Shown here: positions 33,086-49,592 of the stretch, piece by piece
Layout: each line of letters opens with the position of its first letter
Position numbering within the stretch: the stretch's first letter is position 1
Origin: Bryobacteraceae bacterium
GTDB taxonomy: Bacteria; Acidobacteriota; Terriglobia; Bryobacterales; Bryobacteraceae
Length of the DNA stretch: 52,813 nucleotides
Assembly: GCA_035314765.1 (NCBI GenBank)
Contig: DATFZA010000814.1
Location: 1 to 52,813, forward strand
Direction of reading: 5' to 3'
Translations under genes and position numbers: made by a program
The notes under the pieces: model-generated
Told to the model about the DNA's origin: nothing
The model's input: the letters and a program-made list of their open reading frames with translations, nothing else
Databases searched by the model: none

Positions 33086-34815
33086 ATGAGCGGATGGAGC
33101 GGCACGATTGCCCGAATCAACCTGACGACCGGCGCCATCAAGAAAGAACGAACCAATCTCAAGGACGCCGCCCTGTTCCTGGGCGCGCGCGGACTGGGCG
33201 TCAAGATTCTCAGCGACGAGATCGACGCCACCATCGAGCCCCTGTCGCCGGAGAACAAGCTGATCTTTGCACCCGGACCTTTCTCCGGCACCTTTGCGCC
33301 TTCGGCCGGCCGGTATCACGTAGTGACCAAAAGCCCTTTGACGGGAGCCATCGCGGGATCGAACTCCGGCGGAGTGTGGGGGCCGCAGTTGAGATACGCC
33401 GGGTATGACGCATTGATATTCGAAGGCAAAGCAGAGAAACCCGTCTACCTCTGGATCAAGGACGGCCACATGGAACTACGAGATGCGTCGCATCTCTGGG
33501 GCAAATGGGTGCCGGACACGACTGAGGCTGTGCGCGCCGAAACCGACGACGATGCCAGTGTCGCGTGCATCGGTCCGGCCGGCGAGAAGCAGGTGCTGAT
33601 CGCCGCCATCATGAACGAGATGCATCGCGCCGCCGGACGTTCGGGTGTGGGCGCCGTCATGGGCTCCAAAAAACCTCAAGGCTGTGGCCGTGGTCGGGAC
33701 GAGAGCGATTCCGTTAGCGTTAGCAGCCCCCAAGGCCTTCGAAGCCGCCGTGCTGGAGGCGCGCAAAAAGATCGCGGCGAACCCGGTGGCTCAGGGCCTG
33801 GGGACCTATGGCACTGAGGTACTGGTTAACATCCTGAATCAGATCGGCTCTCTGCCTACGCACAACTTCCGGGAGGGATATTTCCCGGCGGCCGACAAGA
33901 CGGGCGGAGAATCCTTGAAGGCTACACTGCTAGTGCGCCCCAAAGGCTGTTTCTCGTGTGTGATCAGTTGCGGGCGCGTCACCAAGATCAAGAACCCCAA
34001 GTACGCCAGCGAAGGGGAAGGCCCGGAATACGAAGCCGGGTGGTGCATGGGGGCGGATAGCGGGATCGACGACCTGGAAGCGATCACCAAGGCCAATCAC
34101 CTGTGCAACGAGCTTGGACTTGACAGCATTTCCATGGGCGCGACCGTCGCCTGTGCCATGGATCTGTATGAGCACGGCTTCATTCCCAAGGAGGACGCGG
34201 ACGGCCTCGACCTTCACTTCGGCAACGCCGAAACCATGGTGAAGCTGACCAGGATGACCGGTCTGCGCGAGGGCATCGGCGACAAGCTGGCGCTGGGCTC
34301 CTTCCGGTTCGCTTCGCTTTATGGCCATCCCGAGTACTCGATGACGGTGAAGAAGCAGGAAATCCCTGCCTACGATCCGCGCGGAGTGCAGGGTATCGGC
34401 CTCGAATATGCCACCTGTAATCGCGGCGGCTGCCACGTTAAGGGCTACACCATCTCGGTCGAAGTGCTCGGTCAAGGGCCCAATCTCGACCCGCGGGTTA
34501 TTACCGCCAAGCCATTCTGGGTAAAGCTGTTCCAGGACGTGACGGCGGCGGTGGACGCCGCTGGTGGCTGCATCTTCGGCACGTTCGGCATGGATGTTGG
34601 AGCGCAAAATCGGCCAACAAGCGTTGGATCTGGAGTTTTTGACAAGAGCCTTCAAGCTTGTAAAGGAGTCACGCCAGAAGAACACCGGCACTGGCGAGAC
34701 AGCATCTACGGAGAAATCCGAAGCATGATGCGGCGGAAAGGCTTCGAAGCCAGTCACGCCTGCCAGATCGCCAAGGCAGCCGCGCGGTTTCTATCGCCAC
34801 TGTGCATAACACGAA
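33086..34815 (+). pseudogene. aldehyde:ferredoxin oxidoreductase (AOR family), frameshifted and 3'-truncated
   Basis: N-terminus [16 protein letters not shown]...[13 protein letters not shown]. The frame breaks in the A6 run 33668-33673 (expected reading [16 protein letters not shown]). It continues through CFSCVISCGR and EYATCNRGGCHVKGY. The last roughly 50 aa are replaced by the IS3 fragment. Confidence 0.8.
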
Positions 34816-34827
34816 CCGCGCCAGGCC

Positions 34828-34989
34828 GATGTGGCCTTGCGGGACCTGATTCAAAAAGTCGCGCTGGAGAACCGCTTTTACGGATACCGCCGGGTGACGG
34901 CAGAACTGCAACACCGCGGCACTGTGGTGAACCACAAACGGGTATTGCGGTTGATGCGCGCCGACAACAGACAGAAACGCGGGACCTGA
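34828..34989 (+). mobile_element. IS3-family transposase (OrfB N-terminal region) fragment
   Basis: Frame-1 translation DVALRDLIQKVALENRFYGYRRVTAELQHRGTVVNHKRVLRLMRADN matches my recollection of the region preceding the DDE core of IS3 OrfB. There is no start codon, no DDE core and no inverted repeats. Confidence 0.6.
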
Positions 34990-35560
34990 AACGCCACTTT
35001 TTTTCACGGGTTGGATGGCCCCAGAAAGTCGCCAGTTAGACTGTTTCTTTCAGGTGGTCAGCGCAGGTGGTCACCCATTGGGAATCGTGCAATCTCATCT
35101 GGCTCATAGGTTTACGGCGAGATCCAATCCGTTCACTCGACAACCAGGCTGGGCCGACGGCTCGCAGTCCGGTGGCAGTTCGGGAACGGCAAAAAGAGGA
35201 AGGCCGCGTACCTGTCCGCGCACCTGCCCTGCGCACCTGAAAAAGTCACTGTAACTAACCTGCTCGCGCAGCAGGCCAAGCGGCTGAAAATAATGGAGTT
35301 CCAGGTCCCACGATTTGAGCCGGCGATGACTCGTCTCGCGCCGGATGCCACCCGTGGGCAACGTGGTACGGCGTGTTGCGGTGTCTGGCTCCGGGTTGGC
35401 TGGATGTTGGTCCCACCTCCTCGGGAGCCCCTGGGGCCCCTGACCGGCATGGCCGATCCCAGACCACTGCGGAAATTCCGCAGTCGCTGATGTCACATGG
35501 GAGTTTCCCAAGCGGCCATGTCGGAACGGCGTCGGGACCGACTCCTGGGTGGTGATGGGA

Positions 35561-35654
35561 GGCGAAGGCGAAGGCGACGCCAACTACAACTTGTGGGATA
35601 TTTGGCACAAGTCGGTCGCGGTTGGAGATCTGAGGCAACCTCGGCAACCTCGGC
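35561..35654. repeat. cluster of short tandem and inverted repeats in non-coding relic DNA
   Basis: Three elements: (GGCGAA)2GGCGAC at 35561-35578; inverted repeat ACTTGTG-N10-CACAAGT at 35589-35612; (GGCAACCTC)2GGC at 35634-35654. Confidence 0.7.
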
Positions 35655-35693
35655 GCAATTACGCCGAAGCGGCGCGAGCCCATCCTGAATGGT

Positions 35694-35770
35694 CGGGCGG
35701 GGATGCCGGCAGGGGTTTTGTAGGTTTTGTAGGTTCGAGTTTGGCGATTGCCTCCAAGATTCAACGGCAG
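35694..35770 (-). repeat. ~70-bp intergenic element, copy a (contains 2 x GGTTTTGTA at 35714-35733)
   Basis: Read on the minus strand it aligns with copy b: CTGCCGTT(T)GAAT..GG.GGCAATCGCCAA...CCTACAAAACCTACAAAACCCCTGC.GGCATCCC. Confidence 0.75.
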
Positions 35771-35936
35771 CATCGCCGCCCGCAAAATTGACAGGTCCGG
35801 CATGGATCTCGGGCGATCCCTCGGACGTGGCACCCACAAAACCTACAGAACCGGTTTTGATGGTCTTGCAGGTACGCTTCCTGCCGAATCCGCCGAGGTG
35901 GGGAGCGTCGGTTTCAATCCAGCCGCTGGCCCCGCT
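35771..35936 (-). pseudogene. degenerate N-terminal fragment of a paralogue of gene X (37417-38040)
   Basis: Minus-strand translation WIETDAPHLGGFGRKRTCKTIKTGSVGFVGATSEGSPEIHAGP aligns with X WLDWNSKVCISGDSAGGEPTKPSKPGFVGFVGTTSPESPKIDAEP. It has no start codon. The body is deleted, so it runs straight into element copy a. It includes the degenerate palindrome 35833-35872. Confidence 0.45.
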
Positions 35937-36722
35937 TCACCGAAAACGTCTCAACTGGGGAAATTCCCCAGTCGGTGACAAACCGCAATCGCCCTGTGCC
36001 TCGACGAGGCAGCCCAGCGCGACCTTCACCAATGCCGCCGCCACTTCTTCGGCGCGATACACCGGCACGCGCCGGATCACCGCCACCTGCTCGTTGATGA
36101 CGTATGAGTGCCGGCCCTTCGGATCGAATTCCGCGAACACCGCCAGTATCGCCGCCACCGCTTCTCGGGTGAGACGCTGGCCCGCCGGCTCCACGTCCAG
36201 ACTGATCTGCGCCAAGTGTCTGGTCCGAATCACCACGACCTCAGGACGATGCTCCTGCCGGCACGCCCGGTTGTGCTCCTGCGCTCGCAGCCCTTGCGCC
36301 CCTTCGAGGACCTCGTAACCCTTCTCGCGCCATCGATTCCGTACCAGCCATCCGCGACCGTACAGCCTCCGCTGGTGCTTCTCCCAGAGGCTCAGTTCAC
36401 TGGCGGGCTTCACGCGAAAGCGCCAGTTCAACTCGCCCTCATCCACAGGAAGAAAGCCCGCCGCCAGCATGGCGCCCTTGAACGCGCCGTTGTAGACATA
36501 GAACCCGTCCGGCTCGCGATCGAAGTCGTGTTTCATGCCGTAGCTATTGCGTCGAAAGACGGTCTTGGCAGGTACGAGCACGGCGAGGATCCAGTCCACC
36601 AGGGCGGACTGCTGCTCGGGTTCGAGCTTCTGGAATCCGTCCGGGTCGTTGGCCTCCCAATCCTTCTCGGCCAGCTCATCCCTTCGGCGTCCTCTCGCCA
36701 TGTAGATCGCTTTGTAATCCAT
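35937..36722 (-). CDS. hypothetical protein (gene Z of primase operon)
   Basis: 261-aa ORF starting 3 nt after the stop of gene Y. I recognise no motif. Confidence 0.6.
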   Translation of the reverse strand: MDYKAIYMARGRRRDELAEKDWEANDPDGFQKLEPEQQSALVDWILAVLVPAKTVFRRNSYGMKHDFDREPDGFYVYNGAFKGAMLAAGFLPVDEGELNWRFRVKPASELSLWEKHQRRLYGRGWLVRNRWREKGYEVLEGAQGLRAQEHNRACRQEHRPEVVVIRTRHLAQISLDVEPAGQRLTREAVAAILAVFAEFDPKGRHSYVINEQVAVIRRVPVYRAEEVAAALVKVALGCLVEAQGDCGLSPTGEFPQLRRFR

Positions 36723-36725
36723 ATT

Positions 36726-37325
36726 TCAGTTCACCTCCAAGGCCGCGCCATCAAAGTAGTTGAACGATCCGAGCCAGCAGTTCACCCAAGGGATGCCGCG
36801 ACCTGTCAACGAGTGGAATTGAAGATCTTCCATCTGACAGCGCAAGAATTGGACCAGGTGGAGGGCGCGGATCGCGTCGTCCATAATCCGAACCGGGAGA
36901 TGCCTGCGCAGCCGGATGATGTCCAGGAAGCGGCGTACCGCGGGTTGTGCTGGCCCCAATGCCCTCGCCGCCGTGATGTGCTGGTCCACCGCCCACAGGC
37001 CGGCGGCCTGCGGGACGATGGCGGCCGATTCCAAGGTGGCTCCTTCCATCCAACAGCCAACGGATTCCGCATCGCCAGACAGGGTGCGCAACTGAAGTGC
37101 TCCCATGCCGGCCTGAATTCTGTCGAGGGCTTGATGGATGCCCTTCACGGTGCCCGGAATCCGGCGACAAACATCTGCTGCCGATCGGCCGGCCCGGCGT
37201 CCATCTTTAAGAGTTTTCAAGATGGCGTTCTCGAACTCGGCTACCGAACGGTGGATCGTGGACCACTCGTGCGCGGCGGCGCGATGGTCGTCGATGGTCA
37301 TGACGGTATAGTGTTTTCTGTTCAT
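36726..37325 (-). CDS. hypothetical protein (gene Y of primase operon)
   Basis: 199-aa ORF with a GGAGGAA SD 7 nt upstream of ATG 37325. I recognise no motif. Confidence 0.6.
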   Translation of the reverse strand: MNRKHYTVMTIDDHRAAAHEWSTIHRSVAEFENAILKTLKDGRRAGRSAADVCRRIPGTVKGIHQALDRIQAGMGALQLRTLSGDAESVGCWMEGATLESAAIVPQAAGLWAVDQHITAARALGPAQPAVRRFLDIIRLRRHLPVRIMDDAIRALHLVQFLRCQMEDLQFHSLTGRGIPWVNCWLGSFNYFDGAALEVN

Positions 37326-37347
37326 AGCAATTCCTCCTATCGTGGTT

Positions 37348-37414
37348 GGGCGGGATGCCCGCAGGGGTTTTGAAGGTTTGGGCTTGGCGATTGCCGCCAG
37401 AATTCAAACGGCAG
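37348..37414 (-). repeat. ~70-bp intergenic element, copy b (degenerate 9-mers at 37366-37383)
   Basis: Lies between the stop of X and the SD of Y. Homologous to copy a. Confidence 0.75.
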
Positions 37415-37416
37415 AG

Positions 37417-38040
37417 TCACCGCCCGTTCCGTTTGCGCTCACCGTGTAGAACCGTCGCGGCCGTAATCCGTCCGGACCGCCTGGTGACGCCTTGTTCCAA
37501 GAAGAGCCGGTTCAGCGCCGCGGCTTTCCCGTCCGCCCAAGAACTGGCTTTCGAGCACCAGCCCATTTCTTGCAGCATCCGGTCCCGGACTTTCCAGGGC
37601 TCGTCCGGGTGCCGTTCCATTTCCGCCAGCACGTCCAGGGGCACGGGCTCGCCCTCTACGCGCCGCAGTTTGTATCGGGCCGGTACGCCGGCGCCATCCA
37701 GGTATCGCACAGGAAGTTGGTCCGATCCGAAAGTGCGCAGTGCCTTTCGAATCTCGGGCCCGTCCAGATCGCTCCAGATGCCGATAGTCGTAACGCCGTC
37801 GAGTTGCATGATGCGAACGCCGCCCCGGTTCAGAACTGAGGATGCCCGGGCCAATACCGCCGGGGCCGGTTCGGCATCAATCTTGGGAGATTCAGGGGAA
37901 GTGGTACCTACAAAACCTACAAAACCCGGTTTTGATGGTTTTGTAGGCTCGCCTCCTGCCGAATCCCCCGAGATACAAACCTTCGAGTTCCAATCCAGCC
38001 ACCGGCTCCGCTTTTCCGGGCCGGCCGCCGTGGCACTCAT
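37417..38040 (-). CDS. hypothetical protein (gene X) with PTKPSKPGFVGFVG motif
   Basis: Start ATG 38040 overlaps the primase stop (ATGA). 207 aa. The motif is encoded by the 41-bp palindrome 37907-37947. Confidence 0.65.
   Translation of the reverse strand: MSATAAGPEKRSRWLDWNSKVCISGDSAGGEPTKPSKPGFVGFVGTTSPESPKIDAEPAPAVLARASSVLNRGGVRIMQLDGVTTIGIWSDLDGPEIRKALRTFGSDQLPVRYLDGAGVPARYKLRRVEGEPVPLDVLAEMERHPDEPWKVRDRMLQEMGWCSKASSWADGKAAALNRLFLEQGVTRRSGRITAATVLHGERKRNGR
37907..37947. repeat. 41-bp near-perfect palindrome made of four 9-bp units (2 x CCTACAAAA, C, GGTTTTGAT GGTTTTGTA GG)
   Basis: The arms match at 18/20 positions. It lies inside the gene X coding sequence. Confidence 0.85.
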
Positions 38041-40565
38041 TCCCACACCGCCGGATTCACTTGGAACCGGTTGGAGGGGCGCCCGCCATAGGGCCCCGGT
38101 TCCCCGGACAGATCGCGGACCCACCCCGCATCCTGAAGGACCTCCGCCGCCAGTTTCACGGCTTCCGGAGTATCCAGGCCGCTCCACCCTTTCAGGTACA
38201 CCTCGCGGCAGGCGAAGGAACCGCTACCGCCTACCTTGCGCTTCCTGATCTTCTCCGCCAACTCACGGGCGGCCCGAAGTTGTGGAGTCACCACGCACGA
38301 ATAAACCCGCTGCGAGTGCGATTCCAGATACTCACAACACGCCGCGGCCTGCCTTGTGTGCTCCAGCGAAACGGTATCGGCGCTGCCATTGCCCGCCGCC
38401 CATTCCGCCAACTCGAACAGAACCGACAACGCCGGCATCAGCTTGCGGTACTTGCTCAAGTGCGAAACGAGAGCGGGATGCAGTTCATCGCCGCGCACCT
38501 TCGCCTCAAGCTCGGCCAACCATTCCACGAACAGTTCCTGCGCTTCCGGTGCATAGCGGTACCGCACAGGTTGTTCGGGGTCCAACTGCACCAGCTTGTT
38601 GAACACCAGCGCGGCCTGCTCTTCCGAGGACGCGTCTGGAGCCCGGTCTACGTATTGCCAGCCCGGCTCCGTATCCGGCCAGACCAGCAATTGAAACCGC
38701 TGGATCAAACCGTCGTTGCTCGGGCCATCTTCGAGCGCCTCTGCTAAATAGGAACGCAGGCGACCAGGTTGGATGCCGCCCAACATCGACATGCAGCACG
38801 CTTCCACGTGAATGGTGCCGCGGCCGATTCTATCTATGGTGTGACCGGTGTCGCCGTTCCAAGCTTGCAGACAGAATGCGCGTTCGCCTTCGCGGCCGGC
38901 ACGGTCCAGTTGACTCCACCATCCGGTCAGTTCATCCCGGATCACCAGAATGCCGGCCGGATTCTCGCTCATCGTCTGATGCATCGCTTCGAAGGTGGCG
39001 TCATTCACGATCAGGCGCCGAAGCGTGGGTTCTTCCGGTTCATCCTCTGGTCTGTCAGGCGCCGATCTTCCTTTCTTGGCATTTGCCTTGTACTGCTCCT
39101 TCCATGCCGCGCGGCGGAGTTCATATTCTTCTTTGCCGCGGGCGTATTCTTCACTTGCCTCCTCCTGCGCCTGCCGCCACTCGGTCTGAATCTGATGCAG
39201 CGGACGGGTAGCAGCCTGTATGACGGGCGACTTCATGAATCCCGGTGGCGCGATGATGCCACCCCAGAGATTGGGCACCACCACCCAACCCGTGTCATTC
39301 GCCTTCGGCTGGATGACAGCCCGGCGGTTTACCGCTCCCGCGAGGCAGAGCATGGTCACCGTGGCTGGATAGTCCATCGGGACTTGCATCCGCTCCGTCA
39401 CATCCCGCACCAGGGGACGGAACAGAACGGGCAGAAGGTCTTCGGAAAAGGCCTGCACGGGCGGAAGTTCGCTTTGGATCGGCTCCAGCTTCGGCCAATC
39501 GTCCGTGACTTCCACGCGCGCCGCCTGGCGTTTGGGTTCTTCGTTTGCGATGCTCCACCGTGACCGCAGTGCTGCAAGGGATGACGCGTCCAAAAGCGCC
39601 ACAGCATCGACGGCTTCACGGAGTTGATCGAGCGTGCCGCCGGAGTTGCGCCAATCGGTCACGTCACCCTTCTCTGATAAGCCGGGAAGTTCCACCATGC
39701 GGATCGAAGCGGCCGCGGACAACAACGCCGTGGCCACAGCCAGGGCGTGCTTCCTGCCGGGATCGTCGTTATCGGGAAGGATGACGACGTGGCGGTTCCG
39801 AAAATAGTCCGCCCACCCCGTATAGAGATGACTCTCGCCGGAGCCGCCCGGATTGCAGGAAGCCACCAACCCCCAGGACTCCAAGGTGTGAACGTCCTTC
39901 TCGCCCTCGGGGAGGTAGACCGTCTCCGCTCCGACTACCTTCGGGAGACGGTACGGCACCCGCGGAGAGTCGCGAAAGCGATATTCCGCCCCGTCGTAGT
40001 CAACCTGGTCGCTCGCTCTTTTCCAGGTGGGTTTGCCGGTTGCGCGCTCGGCCTTCGGGTCGGGAAGGTACTTGCCGTTCGACAGACCGACGACGATCCC
40101 GCCGGTGGGAACGCCCCCGATCCGCTCCGGGTCGGTCGTTCCGGCTGCTTCAACTCCGCTCGGACGGACTTGAATGAACGTCTTCTTCCCGTCCGGTTTC
40201 AGATAACGGACGACCTCCAAAAGCAGGTTGCCGTCCGGGTCTGTGTAAGGGTAGCGCTCAATCTCGCGCCACCCGCCGGTTGTGTGCCTGGGTTCGATCC
40301 TGCCCACGAGGCGGAAGACCTCGGCTTTCGCCGTTTTGAAATCCACGCCCGTGAGCGCCATTTCGAGGTCGATGATGTCGCCGCCGCAACCGCAAACCGA
40401 ATGACAATACCATCGGCCTGTCGCGGCTTCCACTTTGAAGTTCGCGTCCTTGCCGCCGTGCCTGGGACAGCCGCAACTCCACTGCGTGCCCTTCTGCTTC
40501 AGGTGGGGGACGCGTTCGTCGTAGAAACGGGACACTTCGCCGGATGTGAATGTGATGATGTTCAT
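38037..40565 (-). CDS. P4-alpha-like primase: zinc-finger + TOPRIM primase fused to DUF3987-type (helicase-like) C-terminal domain
   Basis: Start trimmed to ATG 40565 (MNIITFTSGEV). Cys/His zinc motif CGCPRHGG...WYCHSVCGCGGD. TOPRIM region VYLPEGEKDV...VILPDNDDPGRKHA. The C-terminal 450 aa resemble DUF3987 proteins of integrative elements. Confidence 0.8.
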   Translation of the reverse strand: MNIITFTSGEVSRFYDERVPHLKQKGTQWSCGCPRHGGKDANFKVEAATGRWYCHSVCGCGGDIIDLEMALTGVDFKTAKAEVFRLVGRIEPRHTTGGWREIERYPYTDPDGNLLLEVVRYLKPDGKKTFIQVRPSGVEAAGTTDPERIGGVPTGGIVVGLSNGKYLPDPKAERATGKPTWKRASDQVDYDGAEYRFRDSPRVPYRLPKVVGAETVYLPEGEKDVHTLESWGLVASCNPGGSGESHLYTGWADYFRNRHVVILPDNDDPGRKHALAVATALLSAAASIRMVELPGLSEKGDVTDWRNSGGTLDQLREAVDAVALLDASSLAALRSRWSIANEEPKRQAARVEVTDDWPKLEPIQSELPPVQAFSEDLLPVLFRPLVRDVTERMQVPMDYPATVTMLCLAGAVNRRAVIQPKANDTGWVVVPNLWGGIIAPPGFMKSPVIQAATRPLHQIQTEWRQAQEEASEEYARGKEEYELRRAAWKEQYKANAKKGRSAPDRPEDEPEEPTLRRLIVNDATFEAMHQTMSENPAGILVIRDELTGWWSQLDRAGREGERAFCLQAWNGDTGHTIDRIGRGTIHVEACCMSMLGGIQPGRLRSYLAEALEDGPSNDGLIQRFQLLVWPDTEPGWQYVDRAPDASSEEQAALVFNKLVQLDPEQPVRYRYAPEAQELFVEWLAELEAKVRGDELHPALVSHLSKYRKLMPALSVLFELAEWAAGNGSADTVSLEHTRQAAACCEYLESHSQRVYSCVVTPQLRAARELAEKIRKRKVGGSGSFACREVYLKGWSGLDTPEAVKLAAEVLQDAGWVRDLSGEPGPYGGRPSNRFQVNPAVWE

Positions 40566-40579
40566 GCGGCGCCTGCCCC

Positions 40580-40789
40580 TCAGGCCTGCTGCCCGCCGCC
40601 GGTGGGCCGCGTTTCCAGCCACGCGGAAACGTCTTCCGGCTTGTAGCGGACAGCGGCGCCGATCTTGATGTACTTCGGCCCCTGCCGCAGGAGCCGCCAC
40701 CGCCGGACGGAGGCCACCGAGAGGCCCGTGATTCGGGCCACATCGTGCTCGTTCAGCAGCCTTTCGAGAACACTATTCAACGTTGCCAT
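40580..40789 (-). CDS. AlpA/excisionase-family helix-turn-helix protein
   Basis: Start trimmed to ATG 40789. 69 aa. LLNEHDVARITGLSVASVRRWRLLRQGPKYIKIGAAVRYKPEDVSAWLE is the typical AlpA/MerR-like HTH. Confidence 0.8.
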   Translation of the reverse strand: MATLNSVLERLLNEHDVARITGLSVASVRRWRLLRQGPKYIKIGAAVRYKPEDVSAWLETRPTGGGQQA

Positions 40790-40983
40790 TTCGCTCCTTT
40801 TGTGATCTCCAAAACTGTTGTGCTTGAGCCCGGCGCGATGCCGGGACAAATGGATTGCACGATCACGCAAGGCGTTTGCGAAGGCATTTCCGGGTGTCCG
40901 CTCGGCTTCGAAGGCGTCATCGAAGACTGTCCGTACTTTGGGCTTCCCGGCCGGCGTGATCTATTCGGTTTTCAATGATCGTG

Positions 40984-41004
40984 ATGGGCGTCGCGATCGC
41001 CCAT
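40984..41004. promoter_or_regulatory. candidate operator: inverted repeat ATGGGCG-N7-CGCCCAT upstream of the alpA-primase operon
   Basis: Perfect 7-bp arms in the 319-bp intergenic region. Function not demonstrated. Confidence 0.25.
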
Positions 41005-41108
41005 ACGCAATCATCGGGACCGAGAATTGTTTTGAAAACTTTCTCCGGGAAAATGCAGCAATACGGCGCTTCCGTGAGCAACCGCTGTGGTGCGAAAATT
41101 CGCGGAAA

Positions 41109-42131
41109 TTAGGAGAGAGTTTCGGGGGTGTCTTTCTTTCTCGAACGCGCCTGGCCAAGCCTATAACCGATAGCCTTGACGATTAGGTCACGGTCATCGC
41201 AGAGGCTCCACTGGGTGCATTTTCTGTTGCGCCGCCAAGTCCTCGGAACCGGGATGTGTTCTTCGTCCAGGGCTTCGCAGATGTCATCCAGGTTCGAGCG
41301 CCAGTCGCCGTCGGCCGCGATCCGCGCGACCACGTCAGCTACGCGAACGGCGGTGTCGTGATCGGGTTTCGGTCCGCGCTTCCGCGGCGCGGTCGGTGCG
41401 GCGACACCGCTACCCGCAACGGGATCGGCGGTCTCTGGAAGCGCTGGCAGGCCTTCGCTGGCTGGCGGCGCAACGGTATCGGCCATCTGGCGATACGCCT
41501 GCCCTTCCCAGAATTTTCGGGACACGGAGAGATGCAGACAAAGGCGGTGGTGGAATACTCGTCGGGTAGTGAATAGTCGAAGGTGAAAGAGGTACTTCAA
41601 CCAGAACAGCGCCCTGAAGTTCCTTACGGCGGCATCCCTGTCCGGCGTCATTGTCGTGATTTTGCCTTTAAGGAACCGCCGGCTGAAGCTGTGGTCCAGG
41701 TAGTTCTCCCAGTCTCCTGAGATTTGCCCAAATTCCCCGAGCGCGCTCTTCCGGCCCGACTCTGCGGCGCGTGCCTTCACGATGCGATAAAGGTCTTTCC
41801 AATCCGTTGCCCGAGAATCATCGGGAATCACCGTCTGGGCCGGGCAGATTCTGTCGGCAATCGCCATCCGCAGCATGGCCACGTGCGCGGTGTACGCTCC
41901 CGGATCCGTGAAACAAGCCAGCCACTCCCTGGATTCGGCCTCGAACAACTTCTCGGCGTACCGCTCGAAAAACGGCATCAACTCGGATGGATCGTGTTCC
42001 CTGAGCGCCTTCGTGCTCATGCCAATACCGCACCAAAACGCGTCGAGGCCGTTCAGGAGGTCGGCTCCGGCTTCCAGTTTTACCGCCTTGATTCGCCGGA
42101 GGGCCGGTTCTGAAAGAGAAGGCTTGTCCAT
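41109..42131 (-). CDS. hypothetical protein
   Basis: Start trimmed to ATG 42131 (MDKPSLSEPAL); 340 aa. The C-terminal segment RKRGPKPDHDTAVRVADVVARIA...IVKAIGYRL is basic and possibly DNA-binding. Confidence 0.55.
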   Translation of the reverse strand: MDKPSLSEPALRRIKAVKLEAGADLLNGLDAFWCGIGMSTKALREHDPSELMPFFERYAEKLFEAESREWLACFTDPGAYTAHVAMLRMAIADRICPAQTVIPDDSRATDWKDLYRIVKARAAESGRKSALGEFGQISGDWENYLDHSFSRRFLKGKITTMTPDRDAAVRNFRALFWLKYLFHLRLFTTRRVFHHRLCLHLSVSRKFWEGQAYRQMADTVAPPASEGLPALPETADPVAGSGVAAPTAPRKRGPKPDHDTAVRVADVVARIAADGDWRSNLDDICEALDEEHIPVPRTWRRNRKCTQWSLCDDRDLIVKAIGYRLGQARSRKKDTPETLS

Positions 42132-42391
42132 CGCTCCCTTTGCGATTCCCTGAAATTGAAATAGCCGCCACTGGGTAGGGTTTCCCAGCCTTCGCGCCGG
42201 CACATGGTGCCGGGAACGGGCGGCCAACCCCAACCATAACACGGTGGTTCCTGCGGCCAGCCGCGGGACGGATTCGGCCGTCTGGCGGAAGAAACTATGG
42301 CGGCAGCGCGCGCTGTGCGTTCCAGATAGCGACGGCTGCCGATCCGGCCCGTACCGAGTGTCGAATTATACCGATTCCCCGGCAGTTGGAG

Positions 42392-42411
42392 CCTACAAAA
42401 CCTACAAAACC
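42392..42411 (+). repeat. 9-bp repeat pair, copy e (CCTACAAAACCTACAAAACC)
   Basis: Same units as copies a-d and inverted relative to copies a and b. The flanking GCATGCCCCG resembles the GCATCCCCG of copy a. Confidence 0.75.
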
Positions 42412-42539
42412 TCGCATGCCCCGTGCGTGCAGCCGCGTTCAGATGTGGGGCTAACCGCCCACGATGGAGGCCCCAACTTCTGCATGCGCAGGCTACGAGC
42501 GCTGGTACGGCCGCCGCGCCTGCGGATGATCCGGCAGGG

Positions 42540-42631
42540 CATCGGCTCGTTTGAAGGATCGTGAGACTCGGGCCGTCCGTGCGGCGGATCAGTTCGAGGG
42601 AGATGGCCTTCTTGCTGCCATCGCGCGCCAT
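42540..42631 (-). pseudogene. DUF3489-like fragment
   Basis: MARDGSKKAISLELIRRTDGPSLTIL aligns with TREGSKKAIVLELIRRADGASLKEI of the 47254-47871 protein. The rest of that ORF has no similarity. Confidence 0.45.
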
Positions 42632-42666
42632 GGGCGCGACAGATGTCCGGCGGAATTCTGCCTTTG

Positions 42667-42695
42667 TTGAGCTAGCGTCAATAAAGTTGTAGTAT
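42667..42695 (+). promoter_or_regulatory. candidate sigma-70 promoter of abiEi (TTGAGC-17 nt-TAGTAT)
   Basis: The -10 box ends 6 nt before ATG 42702, implying a near-leaderless mRNA. Sequence match only. Confidence 0.3.
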
Positions 42696-42701
42696 TGTGT
42701 T

Positions 42702-43313
42702 ATGGCACAGTCTCACCGTGAAGCGGCGCGGCGGCTCTTCGAGTTTGCTGAGCAGCAGCAAGGTTACTTCACCACGAAGCAGGCCAAGGCTGCCGGATTC
42801 GCCGAAAACACCCATCCCTACCACGTCCAGGTCGGAAACTGGGTCCGTGAGCACCGCGGTATCTACCGGCTCGCCCTGTTTCCCACAACTGATAGGCCCG
42901 AACTCGTACTTTGGGCGCTGTGGTCCCGGAACCGGAATGAGGAAATCGAGGGCGTATACAGCCACCACACGGCGCTCAGTCTTTACGACCTGTCAGATCT
43001 GAATCCATCGAAGCTCCACATGACCGTTCCGACGGACTTCCGGCGCAACAGCGAGATTCCTGGAATCCTCGTACTTCATTTTGCCGACCTGCCCGCGAGT
43101 GACGTACAGACAGCACAAGGCTACAAGCTTACTCGCCCTCTGCGAGCGGTCCTCGACTTGATCGAGGCCGGCACCGTCGAGCGGAACTTCATTCGCCAGG
43201 CACTCAGGCAGGCTGTTGACCGTGGTCTGATCACTCGTCAACAGATTCGGAACACGCAAATGAGCGGATCTGCGCGCAAGATCGTGGAGGAAACGCTGCG
43301 GCGAGTTGCGTAA
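42702..43313 (+). CDS. abiEi: type IV toxin-antitoxin / abortive-infection antitoxin AbiEi family
   Basis: 203 aa. N-terminal winged-helix-like LFEFAEQQQGYFTTKQAKAAG...GIYRL. Overlaps the downstream nucleotidyltransferase gene by 1 nt. Confidence 0.75.
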   Translation: MAQSHREAARRLFEFAEQQQGYFTTKQAKAAGFAENTHPYHVQVGNWVREHRGIYRLALFPTTDRPELVLWALWSRNRNEEIEGVYSHHTALSLYDLSDLNPSKLHMTVPTDFRRNSEIPGILVLHFADLPASDVQTAQGYKLTRPLRAVLDLIEAGTVERNFIRQALRQAVDRGLITRQQIRNTQMSGSARKIVEETLRRVA

Positions 43314-44191
43314 TGCCGTCACCCAGGACATATGCGACGGCGGGAGCATTCCGAAGGGCTTTGGAAGAACGCCTGAAGAGGGCATCTCTGACCGATCAGA
43401 TCGACCCTAACCGCCTCCGCCGACAGGTATCATTCGACCGTCTGCTTGCAAGGCTGTTCCGGGAAGAATCAGCGCCCTGGGTTTTGAAGGGCGGGTACGC
43501 GTTGGAGCTACGCTTCAAGGCGGCTCGATCAACGGTAGACATCGACTTGACGGTGCAGCGGGTCGCAGCATCCGCCAGCGGCGACCAGAACCAGATCGTT
43601 CGGGAGATGCTCCAGAGCGCGGCCGATATCTCTCTCGGTGACTGGTTCGAGTTCGTGGTCGGGCCGGCGTCAATGGATTTGACCGCGGCGCCGTACGGCG
43701 GCGCCCGCTATCCGGTCGAAGCTCGAATGGACGAACGAACGTTCGCCCGATTCCACCTGGACGCGGGCGTTGGTGACGTAGTTATGCGACCGCTGGAAAC
43801 AATCGTGTGCCGGGACTGGTTGGGATTCGCCGGCATCGAATCGTCGCGTGTCCTGATGATCGCTCGCGAACAGCAGTTCGCCGAGAAGATTCACGCATAC
43901 ACGCTCCCGCGGAACGCGGCGAACAGCAGGGTGAAGGACTTGGTGGACCTGGCTCTTCTGATCGGATCAGGTGGGCTGGATAAGCACCGGATTATGGAAG
44001 CTTTGCGTCTGACCTTTGAGAGAAGAGGAACACACGATTTGCCGGCGAACTTGGTTCCACCGCCAGCAGATTGGCAGGTCCCGTTTCACGCATTGGCGGA
44101 GGAATGCGGGCTCTCGACAGATGTCGCTGGGGTGTTTGCGGGTGTTCAGAAGTTCGTCGAAGAAGTGCTGGCACAACGCACAGAGCGGTGA
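43313..44191 (+). CDS. abiEii: nucleotidyltransferase toxin AbiEii/AbiGii (DUF1814) family
   Basis: 292 aa. VLKGGYALELRF...RSTVDIDL is the NTase G-x-...-D-x-D region typical of AbiEii. Confidence 0.75.
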   Translation: MPSPRTYATAGAFRRALEERLKRASLTDQIDPNRLRRQVSFDRLLARLFREESAPWVLKGGYALELRFKAARSTVDIDLTVQRVAASASGDQNQIVREMLQSAADISLGDWFEFVVGPASMDLTAAPYGGARYPVEARMDERTFARFHLDAGVGDVVMRPLETIVCRDWLGFAGIESSRVLMIAREQQFAEKIHAYTLPRNAANSRVKDLVDLALLIGSGGLDKHRIMEALRLTFERRGTHDLPANLVPPPADWQVPFHALAEECGLSTDVAGVFAGVQKFVEEVLAQRTER

Positions 44192-44198
44192 ACGCGGT

Positions 44199-46661
44199 AT
44201 GACCGAGAACGGTTCAGACTCTCTTCCATTCGAACCTCCTGACCAGGAAAATGTTCGCCTCCGCGAGGAGAATGCCCGCCTGCGGCGGCTTCTGGCAGTT
44301 CACAGCATTCCTATACCGCAACTTCCGGCAGAGAACCCACCTACAACCAAAACCGTCGAGCCGGCGCCGCCGGTGGACAAGGAGGAGCGCGCCAGACAGA
44401 GGATCGCGCTGTTTCGAAGCCTGTTTCGCGGAAGAGAAGATGTCTACTCTCGGCGATGGGAGAATGCTGATGGCCGGCACGGATATATGCCGGTGGTCGT
44501 AAAGGACTGGAAGGCCATCAACAAAAGCCGCCCGGAGGATCGAAAGAAAGTCGACCAGAAGACCCGGAGGTTCCTTCCGCTGACCGACGCCGCCATCGAG
44601 GACCACCTCTTGGGCAAGGAAACCATCGGCGTATACGCTCTCCTGCCGGACGAAACCTGCTGGTTTCTGGCGGCAGACTTCGACAAGAAGACGTGGGAGT
44701 ATGACTCCCTGGCTTTCCTGGAAACGTGCCGGGAGTTGAACGTGCCCGCGGCCTTGGAACGTTCTCGTTCGGGAAAAGGCGGCCACATTTGGATCTTCTT
44801 TGAGCGTGCGTTGCCGGCGATCACCGCGCGCAAACTCGGATGCGTGCTGCTTACGCGAACTATGGAGCGCAGGCATCAGGTCGGTCTTGATTCCTACGAT
44901 CGATTTTTCCCCAACCAGGACACGATGCCCAAGGGAGGGTTCGGGAACCTGATTGCACTGCCGTTACAGCGGGCGCCCCGCAAGCAGGACAACAGCGTAT
45001 TCATTGACCACGACTTCCACCCGTACCCGGACCAGTGGCAGTTCCTTTCGACGATCCGACGAATGCCGGTCGACGCCGCGGAGGAGATCGTCGCCGAAGC
45101 TCAGCGCAAAGGCGACCTGATTGGCGTCCGGATGAGTATCGCCGATGATGAGGATGCACAAGACCCGTGGACGCTACCGCCATCCCGCAAGCGAAAGGAG
45201 CGGCCGATCGAAGGACCGCTGCCAAAGACCGTCCAGATCGTTCGCGCGAATCTTGTTTACGTGGAAAGTAAGGATCTGCCGCCAGCTATGCTGAATCGGC
45301 TTCTGCGGCTGGCAGCCTTTCAGAATCCGGAGTTCTACAAGGCTCAGGCCATGCGGCTTTCGACGTACGACAAGCCGCGCGTGATCGCATGCGGCACGGA
45401 ATTTGTCCAGCATATCGCGGTGCCTCGAGGATGTCTGACGGAGACCCTGGCTCTTCTCGAAGCCCACAAGATCCGGCCCGAAGTTCGGGACGAACGGTAT
45501 GCCGGCACGGCGATTGAAGCGGTGTTCCAGGGTCAGCTTCGGCCGTTCCAGGAGGAAGCCGTCGCGAAGATCACCGCCCACGACGAAGGCATCCTCTGCG
45601 CTCCCACGGCATTCGGAAAAACTGCCGTAGCGGCATGGCTGATCGCCAAACGCAAGGTCAACACCCTGGTTGTGGTTCACCGGCAGCAGTTGCTCGATCA
45701 ATGGCAGGAGCGCCTTGCGATGTTCTTGGATTTACCTGCCAAATCGATCGGGCATATCGGCGGTGGAAAAATGGACCGGACGGGCTGCGTAGATGTCGCC
45801 GTCATCCAAAGTCTGTACCGAAAAGACGAGGTGAAGGACTTCGTAGCTGAGTACGGTTAGGTGATCGTCGACGAATGCCACCACATATCCGCTTTCACCT
45901 TCGAACAAGTGATGCGGCAGGTGAAGGCCAAATATGTTGTCGGTTTGACCGCCACGCCGACCCGGAAAGACGGACACCATCCGATCATTTACATGCAGTG
46001 TGGCCCCGTGCGGTTCAGCATGAGCGCCAAGACGATGACCGAAACGACTCCCTTCGAGCATAAGGTCACTCCCCGCCATACGGAGTTTCGGATGGCGCCG
46101 GAACTCACCGAAGTCACGATTACGGATATCTACGCCGCGCTCGTGACTGATGTCCCGCGTAACGAGATGATCGCCAATGACATCGTGCGCGCCATAGAAT
46201 CTGGACGGTGCCCACTGCTTCTGACTGGCCGGACTGAGCATCTGCAGTATTTCGCAGCCAAGCTTGCAGGTGTTGCCAAGCACGTCTTCGTCTTGAAGGG
46301 CGGCATGGGAAAAAAGCAGCGTCGGGAAATATCGGCAGCCTTGGCGGCAGTGCCGGAAACCGAATCGCGAGTGATTCTGGCGACGGGAAGCTACATCGGA
46401 GAAGGGTTTGACGACGCGCGTCTCGACACGCTATTTCTGGCCATGCCGATCTCCTGGAAGGGCACACTGCAACAGTATGTAGGCCGGTTGCATCGTCTCC
46501 ACGACAACAAACGATTCGTGCAGGTCTACGATTATGTGGACAACTACGTCCTAATGCTGGCCAGGATGTACGAGCGCAGGCTGAAGGGCTATGCCGCGAT
46601 TGGTTACGTGATCGAGCAGGAAACCTCTCCACCTCACCCCCCGGCGACGGCACGCCCGTAG
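44199..46661 (+). pseudogene. AEP (PrimPol-type primase-polymerase) - SF2 helicase fusion, interrupted by in-frame TAG at 45858-45860
   Basis: AEP motifs: LAADFDKK (DxD), SRSGKGGHIWIFF (sGxGxH), SYDRFFPNQ. Helicase motifs: I APTAFGKT; then TAG; II VIVDECHH; III GLTATPTR; VI QQYVGRLHR. The two ORFs (44199-45860 and 45861-46661) are one continuous frame. Confidence 0.8.
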
Positions 46662-47253: not shown

Positions 47254-47871
47254 CTACTTGGCGGCGGTGCGGTAGGCGCGTTCGCCATCGGCCCGTTTGA
47301 AGGACTCGACCGCAAGCCCCATCTTCTTACCGAGACTGCCGGAGATGAAGCCGCGGATGCTGTGGGCCTGCCACTCGGTGACATCCGCGATCTCCTTAAG
47401 GCTGGCACCGTCGGCACGGCGGATGAGTTCCAGGACGATGGCCTTCTTGCTGCCCTCGCGCGTCGTGGGCTGCGTGTCCTTCGCGGTGGTGCCCTTGGCC
47501 GCCTTGGCCTTCTTTGGCGCGACGTGGGCCGTCTGCCGCGCGGGGGGGGGCACCGTCCGGGCAGCTTTCAACTTGGCTTCCGCGTCGCGAATGCTGGCGC
47601 GCAGCAGTTCCTCCCCCAGCGTCTGGATGGCCTTCCAGATCCGGGAGACCGCCGTCTTGCGGTCGGTGAACTTCTTGACCGGCTTGAGGTCGCCGAAGGG
47701 CGGGGCGCCGGCGAACGCATTCCAGACTTCGACGAACCGCGTGATGGGCCAGTCGGCGGAGAGTTTGGCGAACTCCTTTTCTGTGGCGAAACGGTCTTGG
47801 CCTTCGGGAACCTGCTCGGCGGCGGTGAAGGCAGTGATGTTGTTGTCGGTGGCGATTGCGAACGTGGTCAT
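47254..47871 (-). CDS. DUF3489-domain protein
   Basis: 205 aa. C-terminal KKAIVLELIRRADGASLKEIADVTEWQAHSIRGFISG matches my recollection of the DUF3489 winged-helix signature. Confidence 0.7.
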   Translation of the reverse strand: MTTFAIATDNNITAFTAAEQVPEGQDRFATEKEFAKLSADWPITRFVEVWNAFAGAPPFGDLKPVKKFTDRKTAVSRIWKAIQTLGEELLRASIRDAEAKLKAARTVPPPARQTAHVAPKKAKAAKGTTAKDTQPTTREGSKKAIVLELIRRADGASLKEIADVTEWQAHSIRGFISGSLGKKMGLAVESFKRADGERAYRTAAK

Positions 47872-47877
47872 GGCTTG

Positions 47878-47901
47878 CTCCTGTTTCAGAATTCGATCTT
47901 G
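47878..47901 (-). repeat. 24-nt gene-junction repeat, copy 1
   Basis: CTCCTGTTTCAGAATTCGATCTTG, identical to 48120-48143. On the minus strand it reads ..K I E F stop followed by AACAGGAG (SD). Confidence 0.85.
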
Positions 47902-48113
47902 GGGATTAGGTCCTGCACGAAGGCGGCTTTGCCGGAATCCTCACAAGCCGCGGTGAAGCTGTGGCTGCCCTCGATTGCACCCAGGATCTGGGACGGCGGA
48001 TCGTTGCCAGCGGCAACCTTCCGCATCGCTTCGTGGGGGCCGTCGGCGGTCAGGTTCTCGGCGTATACCACGCCTGTGTCGTCCCAAAGTCCGACTACGG
48101 TGTATGTCTGCAT
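47886..48113 (-). CDS. hypothetical small protein (75 aa)
   Basis: Start trimmed to ATG 48113 (MQTYTVVGLWDD) with a GGAGAC SD. Ends ..PKIEF. Confidence 0.55.
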   Translation of the reverse strand: MQTYTVVGLWDDTGVVYAENLTADGPHEAMRKVAAGNDPPSQILGAIEGSHSFTAACEDSGKAAFVQDLIPKIEF

Positions 48114-48119
48114 TCTGGT

Positions 48120-48143
48120 CTCCTGTTTCAGAATTCGATCTTG
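48120..48143 (-). repeat. 24-nt gene-junction repeat, copy 2
   Basis: Identical to 47878-47901. Confidence 0.85.
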
Positions 48144-48640: not shown

Positions 48641-48642
48641 GG

Positions 48643-48897
48643 TTAGTAGTCCAGTCCTTTGGCATCCACCGCGCTGCGGTCGCTGAGGCTGGCGAGGACG
48701 TAGGCGAGTTCCTCGGTGATGCGGCCCAGGTCGCCGGGGTACCCCCAGTTGGCGGGTTCCTGCGCCTGGTCCTTCTGGTGCTGCTCCAGGCGGCTGGCGA
48801 TGCGCTTCAGCAGGTCCTGGCACTCGGTGTGGCGTTCCGCGTAGCAGGCGGCGGCAGTTTGCTTGGTGTTCTTGGCGGTGCGTTGCATCGAACACAT
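48643..48897 (-). CDS. hypothetical small protein (84 aa)
   Basis: First gene of the co-directional 48897-47254 cluster. No motif recognised. Confidence 0.45.
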   Translation of the reverse strand: MCSMQRTAKNTKQTAAACYAERHTECQDLLKRIASRLEQHQKDQAQEPANWGYPGDLGRITEELAYVLASLSDRSAVDAKGLDY

Positions 48898-49587: not shown

Positions 49588-49592
49588 GTTCG

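Follow-up and report, generated by a model that had tools for sequence, protein, structure and literature searches.

The window, a 52,813-nt stretch of DNA analyzed over its full length, carries a family of 9-bp repeats that are most likely, judged by sequence, DNA-level binding sites forming the replication origin and accessory sites of a small mobile element found in soil Acidobacteria. The best explanation, which we consider probable, is an iteron origin of the SaPI/PICI kind immediately 3' of a fused primase-helicase gene (pri-rep), accompanied by accessory sites like those of P4 crr; none of its features is categorically new.

Table 1. Positions of the repeat sites and of the surrounding genes in the window
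Feature	Position	Strand	Description
Exact copies of CCTACAAAA	35716-35724, 35725-35733, 37939-37947	-	
Exact copies of CCTACAAAA	37907-37915, 37916-37924, 42392-42400, 42401-42409	+	
Site a	35714..35733		two perfect units, after the gene X relic
Gene X relic	35794..35942		remnant of another gene X copy (5' part); contains site d
Site d	35833-35872		decayed 2 + 2 palindrome inside the gene X relic
Two cargo genes	35937..37325	-	flanked by site b and the relic; 199 aa (36726-37325) and 261 aa (35937-36722)
Site b	37366..37383		two degenerate units just past the gene X stop codon
Gene X	37417..38040	-	207 aa, function unassigned
Extended imperfect palindrome	37880..37974		47-nt arms (37880-37926 and 37928-37974) around site c
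Site c, core palindrome	37907..37947		2 + 2 inverted 9-bp units; codons 32-45 of gene X, minus-strand reading; CCTACAAAA CCTACAAAA CC c GG TTTTGATGG TTTTGTAGG
Primase-helicase (pri-rep)	38037..40565	-	842 aa
Wing loop of predicted winged helix	38085..38111	-	pri-rep codons 819-827; joins the final two strands of the model
AlpA/excisionase-type helix-turn-helix gene	40580..40789	-	69 aa, directly upstream of pri-rep
340-aa gene	41109..42131	-	first gene of the module; function unassigned
Site e	42392..42411		two perfect units, ~260 bp upstream of the 340-aa gene

The 9-mer CCTACAAAA has seven exact copies in the window, all confined to the sites in Table 1, against an expectation of 0.14, and none of 100 shuffles reached this count. 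When two mismatches were permitted, 79 matches were found in the window versus 73 expected, which is no enrichment; the repeat signal consists of exact, paired units. A scan of the whole window with the two-unit 20-mer (up to four mismatches) recovered sites a, c, d, and e alone and missed site b, which is more degenerate; the same scan gave zero or one match in 411 kb of shuffled sequence. Related loci totalling 828 kb contain 192 exact copies of the 9-mer versus 2.6 expected, and 164 of these copies adjoin a second unit, while the 20 copies listed among the remaining 28 are type-B left arms plus one single-unit site (L015). The 9-mer is not common elsewhere.

A first-pass annotation had placed the five sites exactly where we find them and taken them for candidate iterons, a reading that every proposed test that was run supports on sequence grounds. 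Positions and repeats are real, but the sites are not independent, because d and a are a duplicated, internally deleted, and decaying copy of c and b. As annotated, site d lies in a gene relic, which is 77%-87% identical to 37868-38018, and sites a and b are embedded in a longer homologous element (blocks 35700-35780 and 37352-37424). The second palindrome is intact in relatives L029 and L030, both of which also keep site a with one mismatch. Site b lies 40-60 bp upstream of the 199-aa gene; L027-L031 have an intact version of it (zero or one mismatch) at an identical offset of +559. Site e sits in a conserved ~60-bp block (42360-42440), homologous to a site just upstream of the L001 integrase gene and to what in L002 and L011 is the downstream accessory site, and is found at the matching relative position in L030. 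In the window, this block contains a TATAAT. A distance of 6.65 kb separates sites a and e, which are inverted repeats of each other.

Site c begins 90 bp past the pri-rep stop codon and is read on the minus strand as the peptide PTKPSKPGFVGFVG, which falls in the N-terminal ~56 residues of protein X, a segment predicted to be disordered (AF2 pLDDT <50 for residues 1-12 and 18-56) that precedes a conserved C-terminal domain. Gene X has 517 homologues, none of them named, of which the few with an organism label are Acidobacteriota, as are the related genome loci; it has no match in Pfam, PHROG, NCBIfam, or PDB, and no fold match was found for its AF2 model. Among 38 non-redundant homologues, synonymous codon identity is 0.948 over the palindrome (codons 32-44), the top-ranked 13-codon window of the gene, versus 0.644 elsewhere; it is 0.81 over codons 46-54, in the extended palindrome, and falls to 0.43 for the central codon. 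The palindrome has a GC3 of 0.07 versus 0.72 in the rest of the gene, i.e., homologues keep the DNA with A/T-ending codons that are rare for the genome and fixed at synonymous sites. Selection at the palindrome targets DNA, not peptide. It is extremely improbable that the conserved feature is a functional PTKPxKP-GFVGFxG peptide of which the intergenic copies are gene X debris. That peptide is indeed conserved across the family, and sites d and a truly belong to a duplicated gene X copy, but the choice of synonymous codons is fixed, frameshifted gene X copies (L011, L020, and L025) retain the DNA motif, and units also specify KPTKP of the primase linker and SFVGFDG of a helicase loop and occur in non-coding DNA as well. 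The peptide is replaced in repeat types C and D, which retain the repeats.

The two arms of site c match at 18 of 20 positions, as the first-pass annotation had it, and belong to an extended palindrome whose arms are 74% complementary, with an outer AATCTC-N2-3-GAGATT-like element in each arm ~13 bp beyond the units. Over 53 loci, the palindrome arms are 81% complementary (25%-41% in shifted register) and the outer positions 22-50 are 57% complementary (22%-35% in shifted register). Arm position 11 is always complementary, being CG in 32 loci, AT in 19, and TA in 2. Such covariation, the free variation of the loop codon, and a predicted fold of -24.4 kcal/mol (z = -4.8) for the 111-nt region might point to a hairpin or cruciform in single-stranded DNA or mRNA, serving either as a DnaG-type priming signal (compare ssiA/ssiB of RSF1010, priming sites that are inverted repeats of 40 nt; PMC8567376) or in translation or stability control between primase-helicase and gene X. 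We regard this as improbable. At positions 8-9 of the stem, the neighboring mismatches T.T and A.A are kept uncompensated in 48-50 of the 53 loci; the half-sites e, b, and a, and U and D of relatives, lack a partner arm yet change together with the palindrome; the two unit sets of L012 lie ~170 bp apart; and no Rfam match was found. A hairpin is not required, because the half-sites cannot form one and the two mismatches are conserved; of the earlier suggestion that a DNA or RNA hairpin rather than the peptide is under selection, the nucleic-acid part holds and the hairpin is not needed. The palindrome is 63% AT versus 39% in the background, and the window's repeat pairs abut around a 1-3 bp centre.

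Repeat variants co-change at all sites of one element, even where these lie in a different gene or in non-coding DNA. The window and relatives have type A (unit CCTACAAAA-CC), at least 10 loci have type B (CCTACAAAA-AC), and further types are A3 (CTTACAAAA; L010), C (CYGACAAAA; L012), and D (GTGACAGAA or GTGACACAA; L022 and L100/L101). Wherever a relative has another variant in the palindrome position, its distal two-unit sites match that variant, for example, at the site b equivalent of L012 (6059-6085). Intergenic copies, for which a search of related elements had been proposed, are present in relatives and change in step with the coding copy. The L012 array is intergenic, running from the primase-helicase stop codon to the gene X start as 2 + 3 units, an ~80-bp AT-rich stretch, and 3 + 2 inverted units. 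Five loci (L014, L018, L090, L096, and L095) have other 2 + 2 inverted repeats in the same location; these and L012 are more distant relatives that share the layout with unrelated repeats. The core site always adjoins the helicase gene; the role and even the orientation of distal sites differ among lineages.

The pri-rep product combines a DnaG-type zinc ribbon, a Toprim/RNA-polymerase domain, a DUF3987 helicase, and a C-terminal winged-helix-like domain. It matches Zn_ribbon_DnaG and DUF3987 in Pfam and primase and helicase families in PHROGs; its model matches the DnaG structure 2au3 in Foldseek (E = 1e-7), and no Rep or winged-helix match was found among solved structures, the helicase core of the model being of low confidence. 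Residues 761-836 have the predicted secondary structure H-b-H-H-b-loop-b, and DUF3987 proteins are MCM-like SF6 replicative helicases with a C-terminal wHTH (PMC4889955). Between type A and type B loci, there are eight fixed differences in 842 residues, six of which fall at residues 819-827, the wing (DLSGESGPFG-G versus DVCGESSDPLGRG); the other two columns are encoded by repeat site U itself. No residue tracking the A/B types was seen in the C-terminal domain of protein X or in AlpA. We propose the wing loop of the model as a candidate reader of the repeats, with the caveat that its correlation with repeat type is confounded by phylogeny and may reflect as few as one evolutionary event, because A and B could each correspond to one clade.

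Xis/Cox/AlpA-type proteins can bind tandem direct repeats, and the units could instead be operators for a transcription regulator of the element (the AlpA-type helix-turn-helix protein, the gene X product, or another repressor) that controls the operons after e/D, b, and c. In line with this, accessory sites lie in 5' regions (e/D upstream of the L001 integrase and of the window's 340-aa gene, and b upstream of the 199-aa gene), and the e/D block is conserved over ~60 bp with its TATAAT in the window. We nevertheless think operators unlikely: AlpA is near-identical in elements that differ in repeat type, between-type differences in gene X are confined to its repeat-encoded part, no sigma-70-like promoter was called at the sites, and some sites lie deep within the primase coding region. 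The constant position of the core beside the helicase gene and the inverted clusters flanking an AT-rich centre in L012 also speak against operators.

We suggest that the repeats are iterons, i.e., short sites bound sequence-specifically by the replication initiator that the element itself encodes, and that site c, with two units per side facing each other, is the origin core. SaPI/PICI Rep proteins and viral initiator-helicases assemble head to head and open DNA. By analogy, the helicase would assemble head to head on the palindrome, most likely recognizing the units via the wing of its C-terminal winged-helix domain, and then open the DNA. Because the element is compact, the origin would share its DNA with the 5' part of the downstream gene X, which encodes a predicted disordered N terminus, and the mirror-image peptide PTKPSKP-GFVGFVG would be a by-product of this. 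Sites with two units (e and b here, U and D in relatives) would be accessory sites for the same protein that may act like P4 crr or, alternatively, couple initiator occupancy to neighboring promoters. The proposal follows a published paradigm in which the origin lies immediately 3' of rep, with at least two oppositely oriented iterons per side, and a self-loading helicase reads these through its C-terminal winged helix (PMC9371898, PMC6092414). Against an origin, the window has no AT-rich unwinding region between the pairs, a defining feature of SaPI/PICI origins.

The module around these sites also contains the AlpA-type gene (PHROG 66, E = 8e-10), a 340-aa gene that is collinear with L001, L002, and L011 and whose product has no match in family searches (including Pfam and PHROG), and two cargo genes that follow gene X in L012 as well, the 261-aa product matching phrog_9576 (function unassigned). 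In relatives, a tyrosine integrase adjoins tRNA genes, which marks the element as mobile; such small integrative elements are common in Bryobacteraceae and Solibacteraceae (Acidobacteriota). Four soil metagenomes gave neither excess copy number nor circular junctions, although coverage says little for a quiescent element. Repeats in a mobile element could also be recombination sites, either crossover or accessory sites of a serine recombinase or arm-type sites of a tyrosine integrase, and several placements fit: a 223-aa serine recombinase gene ends just before downstream site D in L003, L006, and L009, site D also lies upstream of the integrase operon, and sites a and e are inverted. We judge this very unlikely, given that the window, L029, and L030 keep all sites in a module without a small serine recombinase or tyrosine integrase, and that no inversion or deletion joints were found in the four metagenomes. 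Unlike arm-type sites, the sites are 2-8 kb apart, and in L003 more than 2 kb separates them from the tRNA attachment end. The accessory sites, built of direct units in tandem, lack the dimer symmetry of crossover sites.

An iteron origin finds its closest counterparts in SaPI/PICI elements, including Gram-negative PICIs with alpA, which share the order alpA, fused primase-helicase, and repeats directly 3' of the helicase gene (PMC9371898, PMC6092414). Also shared are oppositely oriented repeats (two or more on each side), lineage-specific repeat sequences, an initiator-helicase with a C-terminal winged-helix-like domain, and a small size (~9-10 kb) with an integrase and without virion genes. 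By contrast, pri-rep has no sequence match to any solved Rep structure, the window lineage has no AT-rich spacer between repeat sets, the putative origin lies within a coding region, additional two-unit sites lie kilobases away, and the host phylum is Acidobacteriota. P4 alpha likewise joins a DnaG-type primase, a helicase, and a C-terminal winged helix in one polypeptide (PMC2777425), and P4 ori/crr likewise has at least two clusters of one short repeat, direct and inverted, several kilobases apart. The resemblance to P4 noted in the first-pass annotation survives as a functional one (a putative origin and distal site beside a primase with a DNA-binding-type C terminus) and not as homology: the helicase is DUF3987 rather than SF3/D5, the repeat sequence is unrelated, and P4 ori is not within a downstream gene. 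In lambda, the ori repeats lie within the initiator gene O and encode a flexible linker, with a similar overlap of DNA and protein constraints; the core described here is instead in the gene after the initiator, and relatives have accessory sites in the primase linker and helicase loop. For the spacer-less 2 + 2 palindrome of the window, the closest analogue is the core origin of SV40 and papillomaviruses, where four short repeats form two inverted pairs with near-zero spacer and the initiator-helicase assembles as two head-to-head hexamers, although those initiators, SF3 helicases that carry an origin-binding domain, are unrelated proteins and the viruses are eukaryotic.

The repeat CCTACAAAA occurs in seven exact copies in the 52.8-kb window, against 0.14 expected, and none of 100 shuffles reached seven. 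All seven copies lie at a, c and e of the five sites (a to e) proposed in the first-pass annotation; the 9-mer is uncommon elsewhere, and the observation itself is real. Permitting two mismatches gave no enrichment in the window, which indicates that the signal consists of exact, paired units. A scan of the window with the two-unit 20-mer (at most four mismatches, a threshold that misses the more degenerate site b) returned only sites a, c, d and e, and 411 kb of shuffled sequence gave 0-1 match. Site c is the core site, a 2+2 palindrome with 18/20 matching arm positions and weaker symmetry reaching 47-nt arms. It is AT-rich (63% vs 39%), one of the module's top three 41-bp windows in this respect, and its arms are separated by 1-3 bp, as in most relatives. 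The palindrome lies within gene X, where its minus-strand reading gives PTKPSKPGFVGFVG, and begins 90 bp past the stop codon of the primase-helicase gene (stop at 38037; palindrome end at 37947). The position of the core repeats relative to this stop codon is identical in more than 50 related loci.

The positions of all five sites stand, but not their independence. Site d is inside a relic copy of the 5' end of gene X, homologous blocks contain sites a and b, and the pair d and a is a duplicate of c and b minus the body of gene X. Two related loci, L029 and L030, share this arrangement of five sites, and in them b and d remain intact; site e of the window is homologous to the downstream accessory (D) site of L001, L002 and L011. 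Other small elements accompany the repeats. A palindrome, AATCTC-N2-3-GAGATT, ends each extended arm of site c about 13 bp beyond the units; it is well conserved at equal offsets in related loci, with no covariation seen to judge by, and may be a site for a second protein. A GAAT-N4-ATTC element precedes the upstream accessory (U) sites, and a terminator-like hairpin spans the gene X stop codon. A promoter consensus scan placed no promoter at any repeat site, and a TATAAT seen by eye near site e was rejected because its spacing to any -35-like hexamer is unsuitable.

Features of the primase module, its host island and related loci
Feature	Coordinates	Strand	Details
Island homology end (…GTGGCGTTTCAGGTCCCG)	~34980	-	Within tail of aldehyde:ferredoxin oxidoreductase ORF (region 34757-35256)
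36-nt inverted repeat	35034-35069 / 35221-35256		Just inside island end
Site a, exact repeats	35716-35733
Duplication match 1	35942-35794 ~ 38018-37868
Duplication match 2	35780-35700 ~ 37424-37352
Cargo gene	35937-36722	-	261 aa; phrog_9576
Cargo gene	36726-37325	-	199 aa
Terminator-like hairpin	37410-37424		GGCGGTGACTCTGCC then GTTTGAATTC; directly before site b
Gene X	37417-38040	-	207 aa; no family match
AATCTC-N2-3-GAGATT	37958-37972 / 37882-37896
Site c	37907-37947
Primase-helicase	38037-40565	-	842 aa; DnaG zinc ribbon + Toprim, DUF3987, C-terminal tail
AlpA/excisionase-type HTH	40580-40789	-	69 aa; PHROG 66
First gene in module	41109-42131	-	340 aa
Site e, exact repeats	42392-42409
AbiEi antitoxin / AbiEii nucleotidyltransferase toxin	42702-44191	opposite	Beside site e
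TOTE conflict-system protein	44016-46661		AEP-TOTE domain + ResIII/DEAD helicase; adjacent ORFs 44016-45860 and 45861-46661
Far island part	47254-51744		DUF3489 protein, large serine recombinase, DUF2924 protein
Large serine recombinase	49593-50987		Resolvase + Recombinase + Zn_ribbon_recom
Site U, relatives	~2.2-2.4 kb upstream		In-frame, primase linker; encodes APSKPTKP
Site at -482, relatives	-482		Helicase loop; encodes SFVGFDG
Site D, relatives	2-8 kb downstream		Ahead of integrase operon
b-type site, relatives	directly after gene X
In-frame two-unit sites in primase-helicase	L003 5716-5736; L019 ~5722; L043 ~5622-5641
Other repeats	L014 7760-7850; L096 4355-4440; L018 7770-7840; L090 635-720; L095 4660-4740
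Fusion in L013	1940-2130		Primase-helicase C-terminus joined to gene X C-terminal domain

All module genes are on the minus strand. DUF3987 proteins are described as MCM-like (SF6) replicative helicases with a C-terminal wHTH and, in many cases, a fused DnaG or AEP primase (PMC4889955). The primase-helicase has more than 1,100 homologues and gene X has 517, all unnamed, the few with an organism label being Acidobacteriota. Gene X gave no match in Pfam, PHROGs, NCBIfam or a PDB sequence search, and a Foldseek search with its AF2 model (mean pLDDT 60) found none at E <= 0.001. MAGs of Bryobacterales, Solibacteraceae and Terriglobia supplied the related loci. Many of these have, after the module, a tyrosine integrase beside a tRNA gene (for Asn, Thr, Pro, Lys, Arg or Leu), which marks them as integrative elements of about 9-10 kb, devoid of virion or conjugation genes.

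The module in the window is without this integrase. Its surroundings are a composite island that also holds AbiEi/AbiEii, a TOTE-type AEP-helicase and a large serine recombinase, the last a candidate for the integrase of the island that carries the module. L029 and L030 have an equal island end joined to different chromosomal DNA; site e was considered as an att site or element end and rejected, the boundary of homology with these two loci falling at the island end and not at the repeats. The oxidoreductase ORF at that end has a Pfam match that stops at residue 371. The AbiEi start is common to L030 and the window, at 95.5% identity. Helicase motifs of the TOTE protein run on past a stop codon, which suggests a possible pseudogene, read-through or an assembly error. 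Four soil metagenome runs confirmed the assembly, with flat depth across the element and no circular joints, a pattern that weighs neither for nor against replication or inversion.

The first-pass annotation had suggested that a DNA or RNA hairpin, rather than the peptide, is conserved at site c, and comparison of gene X homologues agrees as far as nucleic acid is concerned. First, loci with merely 60-80% protein identity keep the rare A/T-ending codons CCT ACA AAA CCA TCA AAA CCn GGT TyT GTA GGT TTT GwA GG in the motif. Second, across 38 non-redundant full-length gene X sequences, synonymous identity at codons 32-44 is 0.948, the top 13-codon window of the gene, against 0.81 at codons 46-54 and 0.644 in the remainder; the central codon 38 stands at 0.43. 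GC3 is 0.07 in the motif and 0.72 elsewhere in gene X. Third, the palindrome DNA is intact in L011, L020 and L025 despite a gene X frame broken upstream of or within the motif, breaks that may reflect indels in long-read assemblies or genuine pseudogenes. The encoded segment falls in a disordered N-terminus (AlphaFold pLDDT <50 at residues 18-56). The constraint acts on the DNA and not on the peptide, which is a caution for annotators: what looks like a conserved "peptide motif" in a disordered stretch can reflect a signal in the underlying DNA.

The part of the suggestion that seems unlikely is that selection preserves a hairpin. The site c region would fold well, and arm positions 2-21 of 53 centred sites are 81% complementary, compared with 25-41% in shifted registers (counted on ungapped centred sequences because the MAFFT alignment misaligned type-D loci). 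At position 11 the pair is CG in 32 loci, AT in 19 and TA in two, with no non-complementary case. However, two adjacent stem mismatches are conserved in the palindrome, and these, together with half-sites that have no partner arm, argue against the hairpin. An Rfam scan of 35000-43000 at E <= 1 returned no match.

How the repeats vary between lineages points instead to a protein that reads them. Five variants were distinguished: type A (CCTACAAAA then CC; the window and relatives), type B (CCTACAAAA then ACTACAGAA; ten-plus loci), type A3 (CTTACAAAA; L010), type C (CYGACAAAA; L012) and type D (GTGACAGAA or GTGACACAA; L022 and L100/L101). Type-A and type-B repeat sites read CCTACAAAACC and CCTACAAAAAC, respectively. 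Every element has two-unit accessory sites whose repeat type matches that of its own core, and the orientation of the distal sites relative to site c varies among lineages. That one variant changes jointly at four places, some of them coding (two genes) and some non-coding, favours a shared trans-acting reader over local structure. The in-protein sites fall into two classes, one in the linker after the zinc ribbon (APSKPTKP or APTKTTKS) and one in a variable loop that precedes the C-terminal domain (SFVGFDG); the primase-helicase of the window has neither.

To look for this reader, we compared 16 type-A with 10 type-B loci. In the primase-helicase, only eight alignment columns fully separate the types. 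Residues 819-827 account for six (DLSGESGPFG-G vs DVCGESSDPLGRG), and the U site itself encodes the remaining two. Residues 761-836 of the AF2 model have the order H-b-H-H-b-loop-b, with residues 822-829 forming the loop between the last two strands, i.e., the wing of a predicted winged helix. Fixed A/B differences in gene X are limited to palindrome-encoded residues, AlpA is essentially identical in both types, and the C-terminal domains of types C and D are much more divergent. This wing-repeat correlation, confounded by descent, singles out the helicase C-terminus as the candidate reader and speaks against gene X and AlpA in that role. A Pfam search limited to the last 130 aa returned no winged-helix family at E <= 10. 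Structure matches to the full-length model were DnaG primases only; the helicase core is of low confidence, so the model yielded no structural tie to SaPI Rep, MCM or the winged helix of P4 alpha.

More distant loci have repeats at the same place. In L012, the interval after the helicase stop codon is non-coding and holds 2+3 units, an AT-rich, pyrimidine-skewed stretch of about 80 bp, and 3+2 inverted units (5 + 5). Five loci with a different gene X N-terminus (L014, L018, L090, L095 and L096) have unrelated repeats, 2+2 inverted, at the equivalent place. In one class of these, two copies of CCGAAGRTGCCC and two inverted copies, with a 19-bp period, flank a short A/T-rich centre; in L095 the repeats are TTAACGCSR x2 and x2 inverted. 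L013, with the winged-helix end and the whole palindrome deleted, is apparently a dead replicon. The best-supported reading of the repeats is the one first proposed, candidate iterons, given the inverted 2+2 layout next to the helicase gene and the concerted variants across sites. A rival reading as serine invertase or resolvase target sites is improbable, as the window module has no small serine recombinase and the accessory sites are tandem, not symmetric; no joints were found in the four metagenomes.

A bolder version, which we consider improbable, is a spacer-less origin with all cis initiator sites threaded in-frame into disordered linkers (gene X N-terminus, primase linker and helicase loop). 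We know of no PICI, P4 or plasmid origin described as working by such threading. If true, this would physically couple protein sequence to replication control and to transcription and translation through the origin, and the conserved T.T/A.A asymmetry of the palindrome and the distal sites could determine when or in which direction the helicase is loaded. The iteron reading itself offers a concrete candidate origin, and a candidate code by which the initiator would recognise DNA, for small integrative elements of Acidobacteriota, a large family that lacks annotation. This phylum is dominant in soil yet genetically intractable, and replicative vectors for it could be built from a working pri-rep-ori cassette. 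Natural repeat variants and the wing changes that go with them form a ready-made specificity series for DUF3987 helicases, whose origin recognition, to our knowledge, is not characterised.

Published SaPI/PICI origins are directly downstream of rep, with at least two opposed iterons per side and an AT-rich centre between them; a self-loading helicase recognises the iterons through its C-terminal winged helix, and alpA is upstream in Gram-negative PICIs (PMC9371898, PMC6092414). The layout in the window, L012 and the distant relatives matches this description: the repeats are directly 3' of the putative initiator gene, and opposed iterons number 2 + 2 at site c and 5 + 5 in L012. Where the SaPI/PICI winged helix binds iterons, the module has a predicted H-b-H-H-b-wing-b C-terminus with type differences clustered in the wing. 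The AT-rich region between iteron sets, in contrast, is absent in the window, present in L012, and only about 13 bp of A/T-rich sequence in L014-type loci. SaPIs and PICIs also replicate autonomously from pri-rep-ori and are induced and packaged by helper phage, traits on which the flat metagenome depth of the element in the window weighs neither way. Site c would be a candidate new entry in this known class, in which satellite-like or small integrative elements have an iteron origin next to pri-rep; what sets it apart is a proposed origin that overlaps a coding region, the missing AT-rich spacer and distal paired sites.

These traits have counterparts elsewhere. The likeness to phage P4 noted in the first-pass annotation survives in part: both have a DnaG-like primase, and the distal two-unit sites with the core's repeat variant recall crr, the second, cis-required iteron cluster kilobases from the P4 ori. 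The helicase, however, is DUF3987 with no D5 family reported, whereas P4 alpha joins a DnaG-type primase to an SF3 (D5-like) helicase and a winged helix. The distal sites could be crr-like enhancers, handcuffing sites or operators. In lambda, the iterons lie within the initiator's own gene, while the core here is in gene X; only the relatives' accessory sites, in the primase linker or helicase loop, have a lambda-like location. The closest analogue of the spacer-less 2+2 site is the SV40/papillomavirus core origin. By analogy, then, the precedents would be lambda for the coding overlap, SV40 for the lack of an AT-rich spacer and P4 for the distal paired sites.
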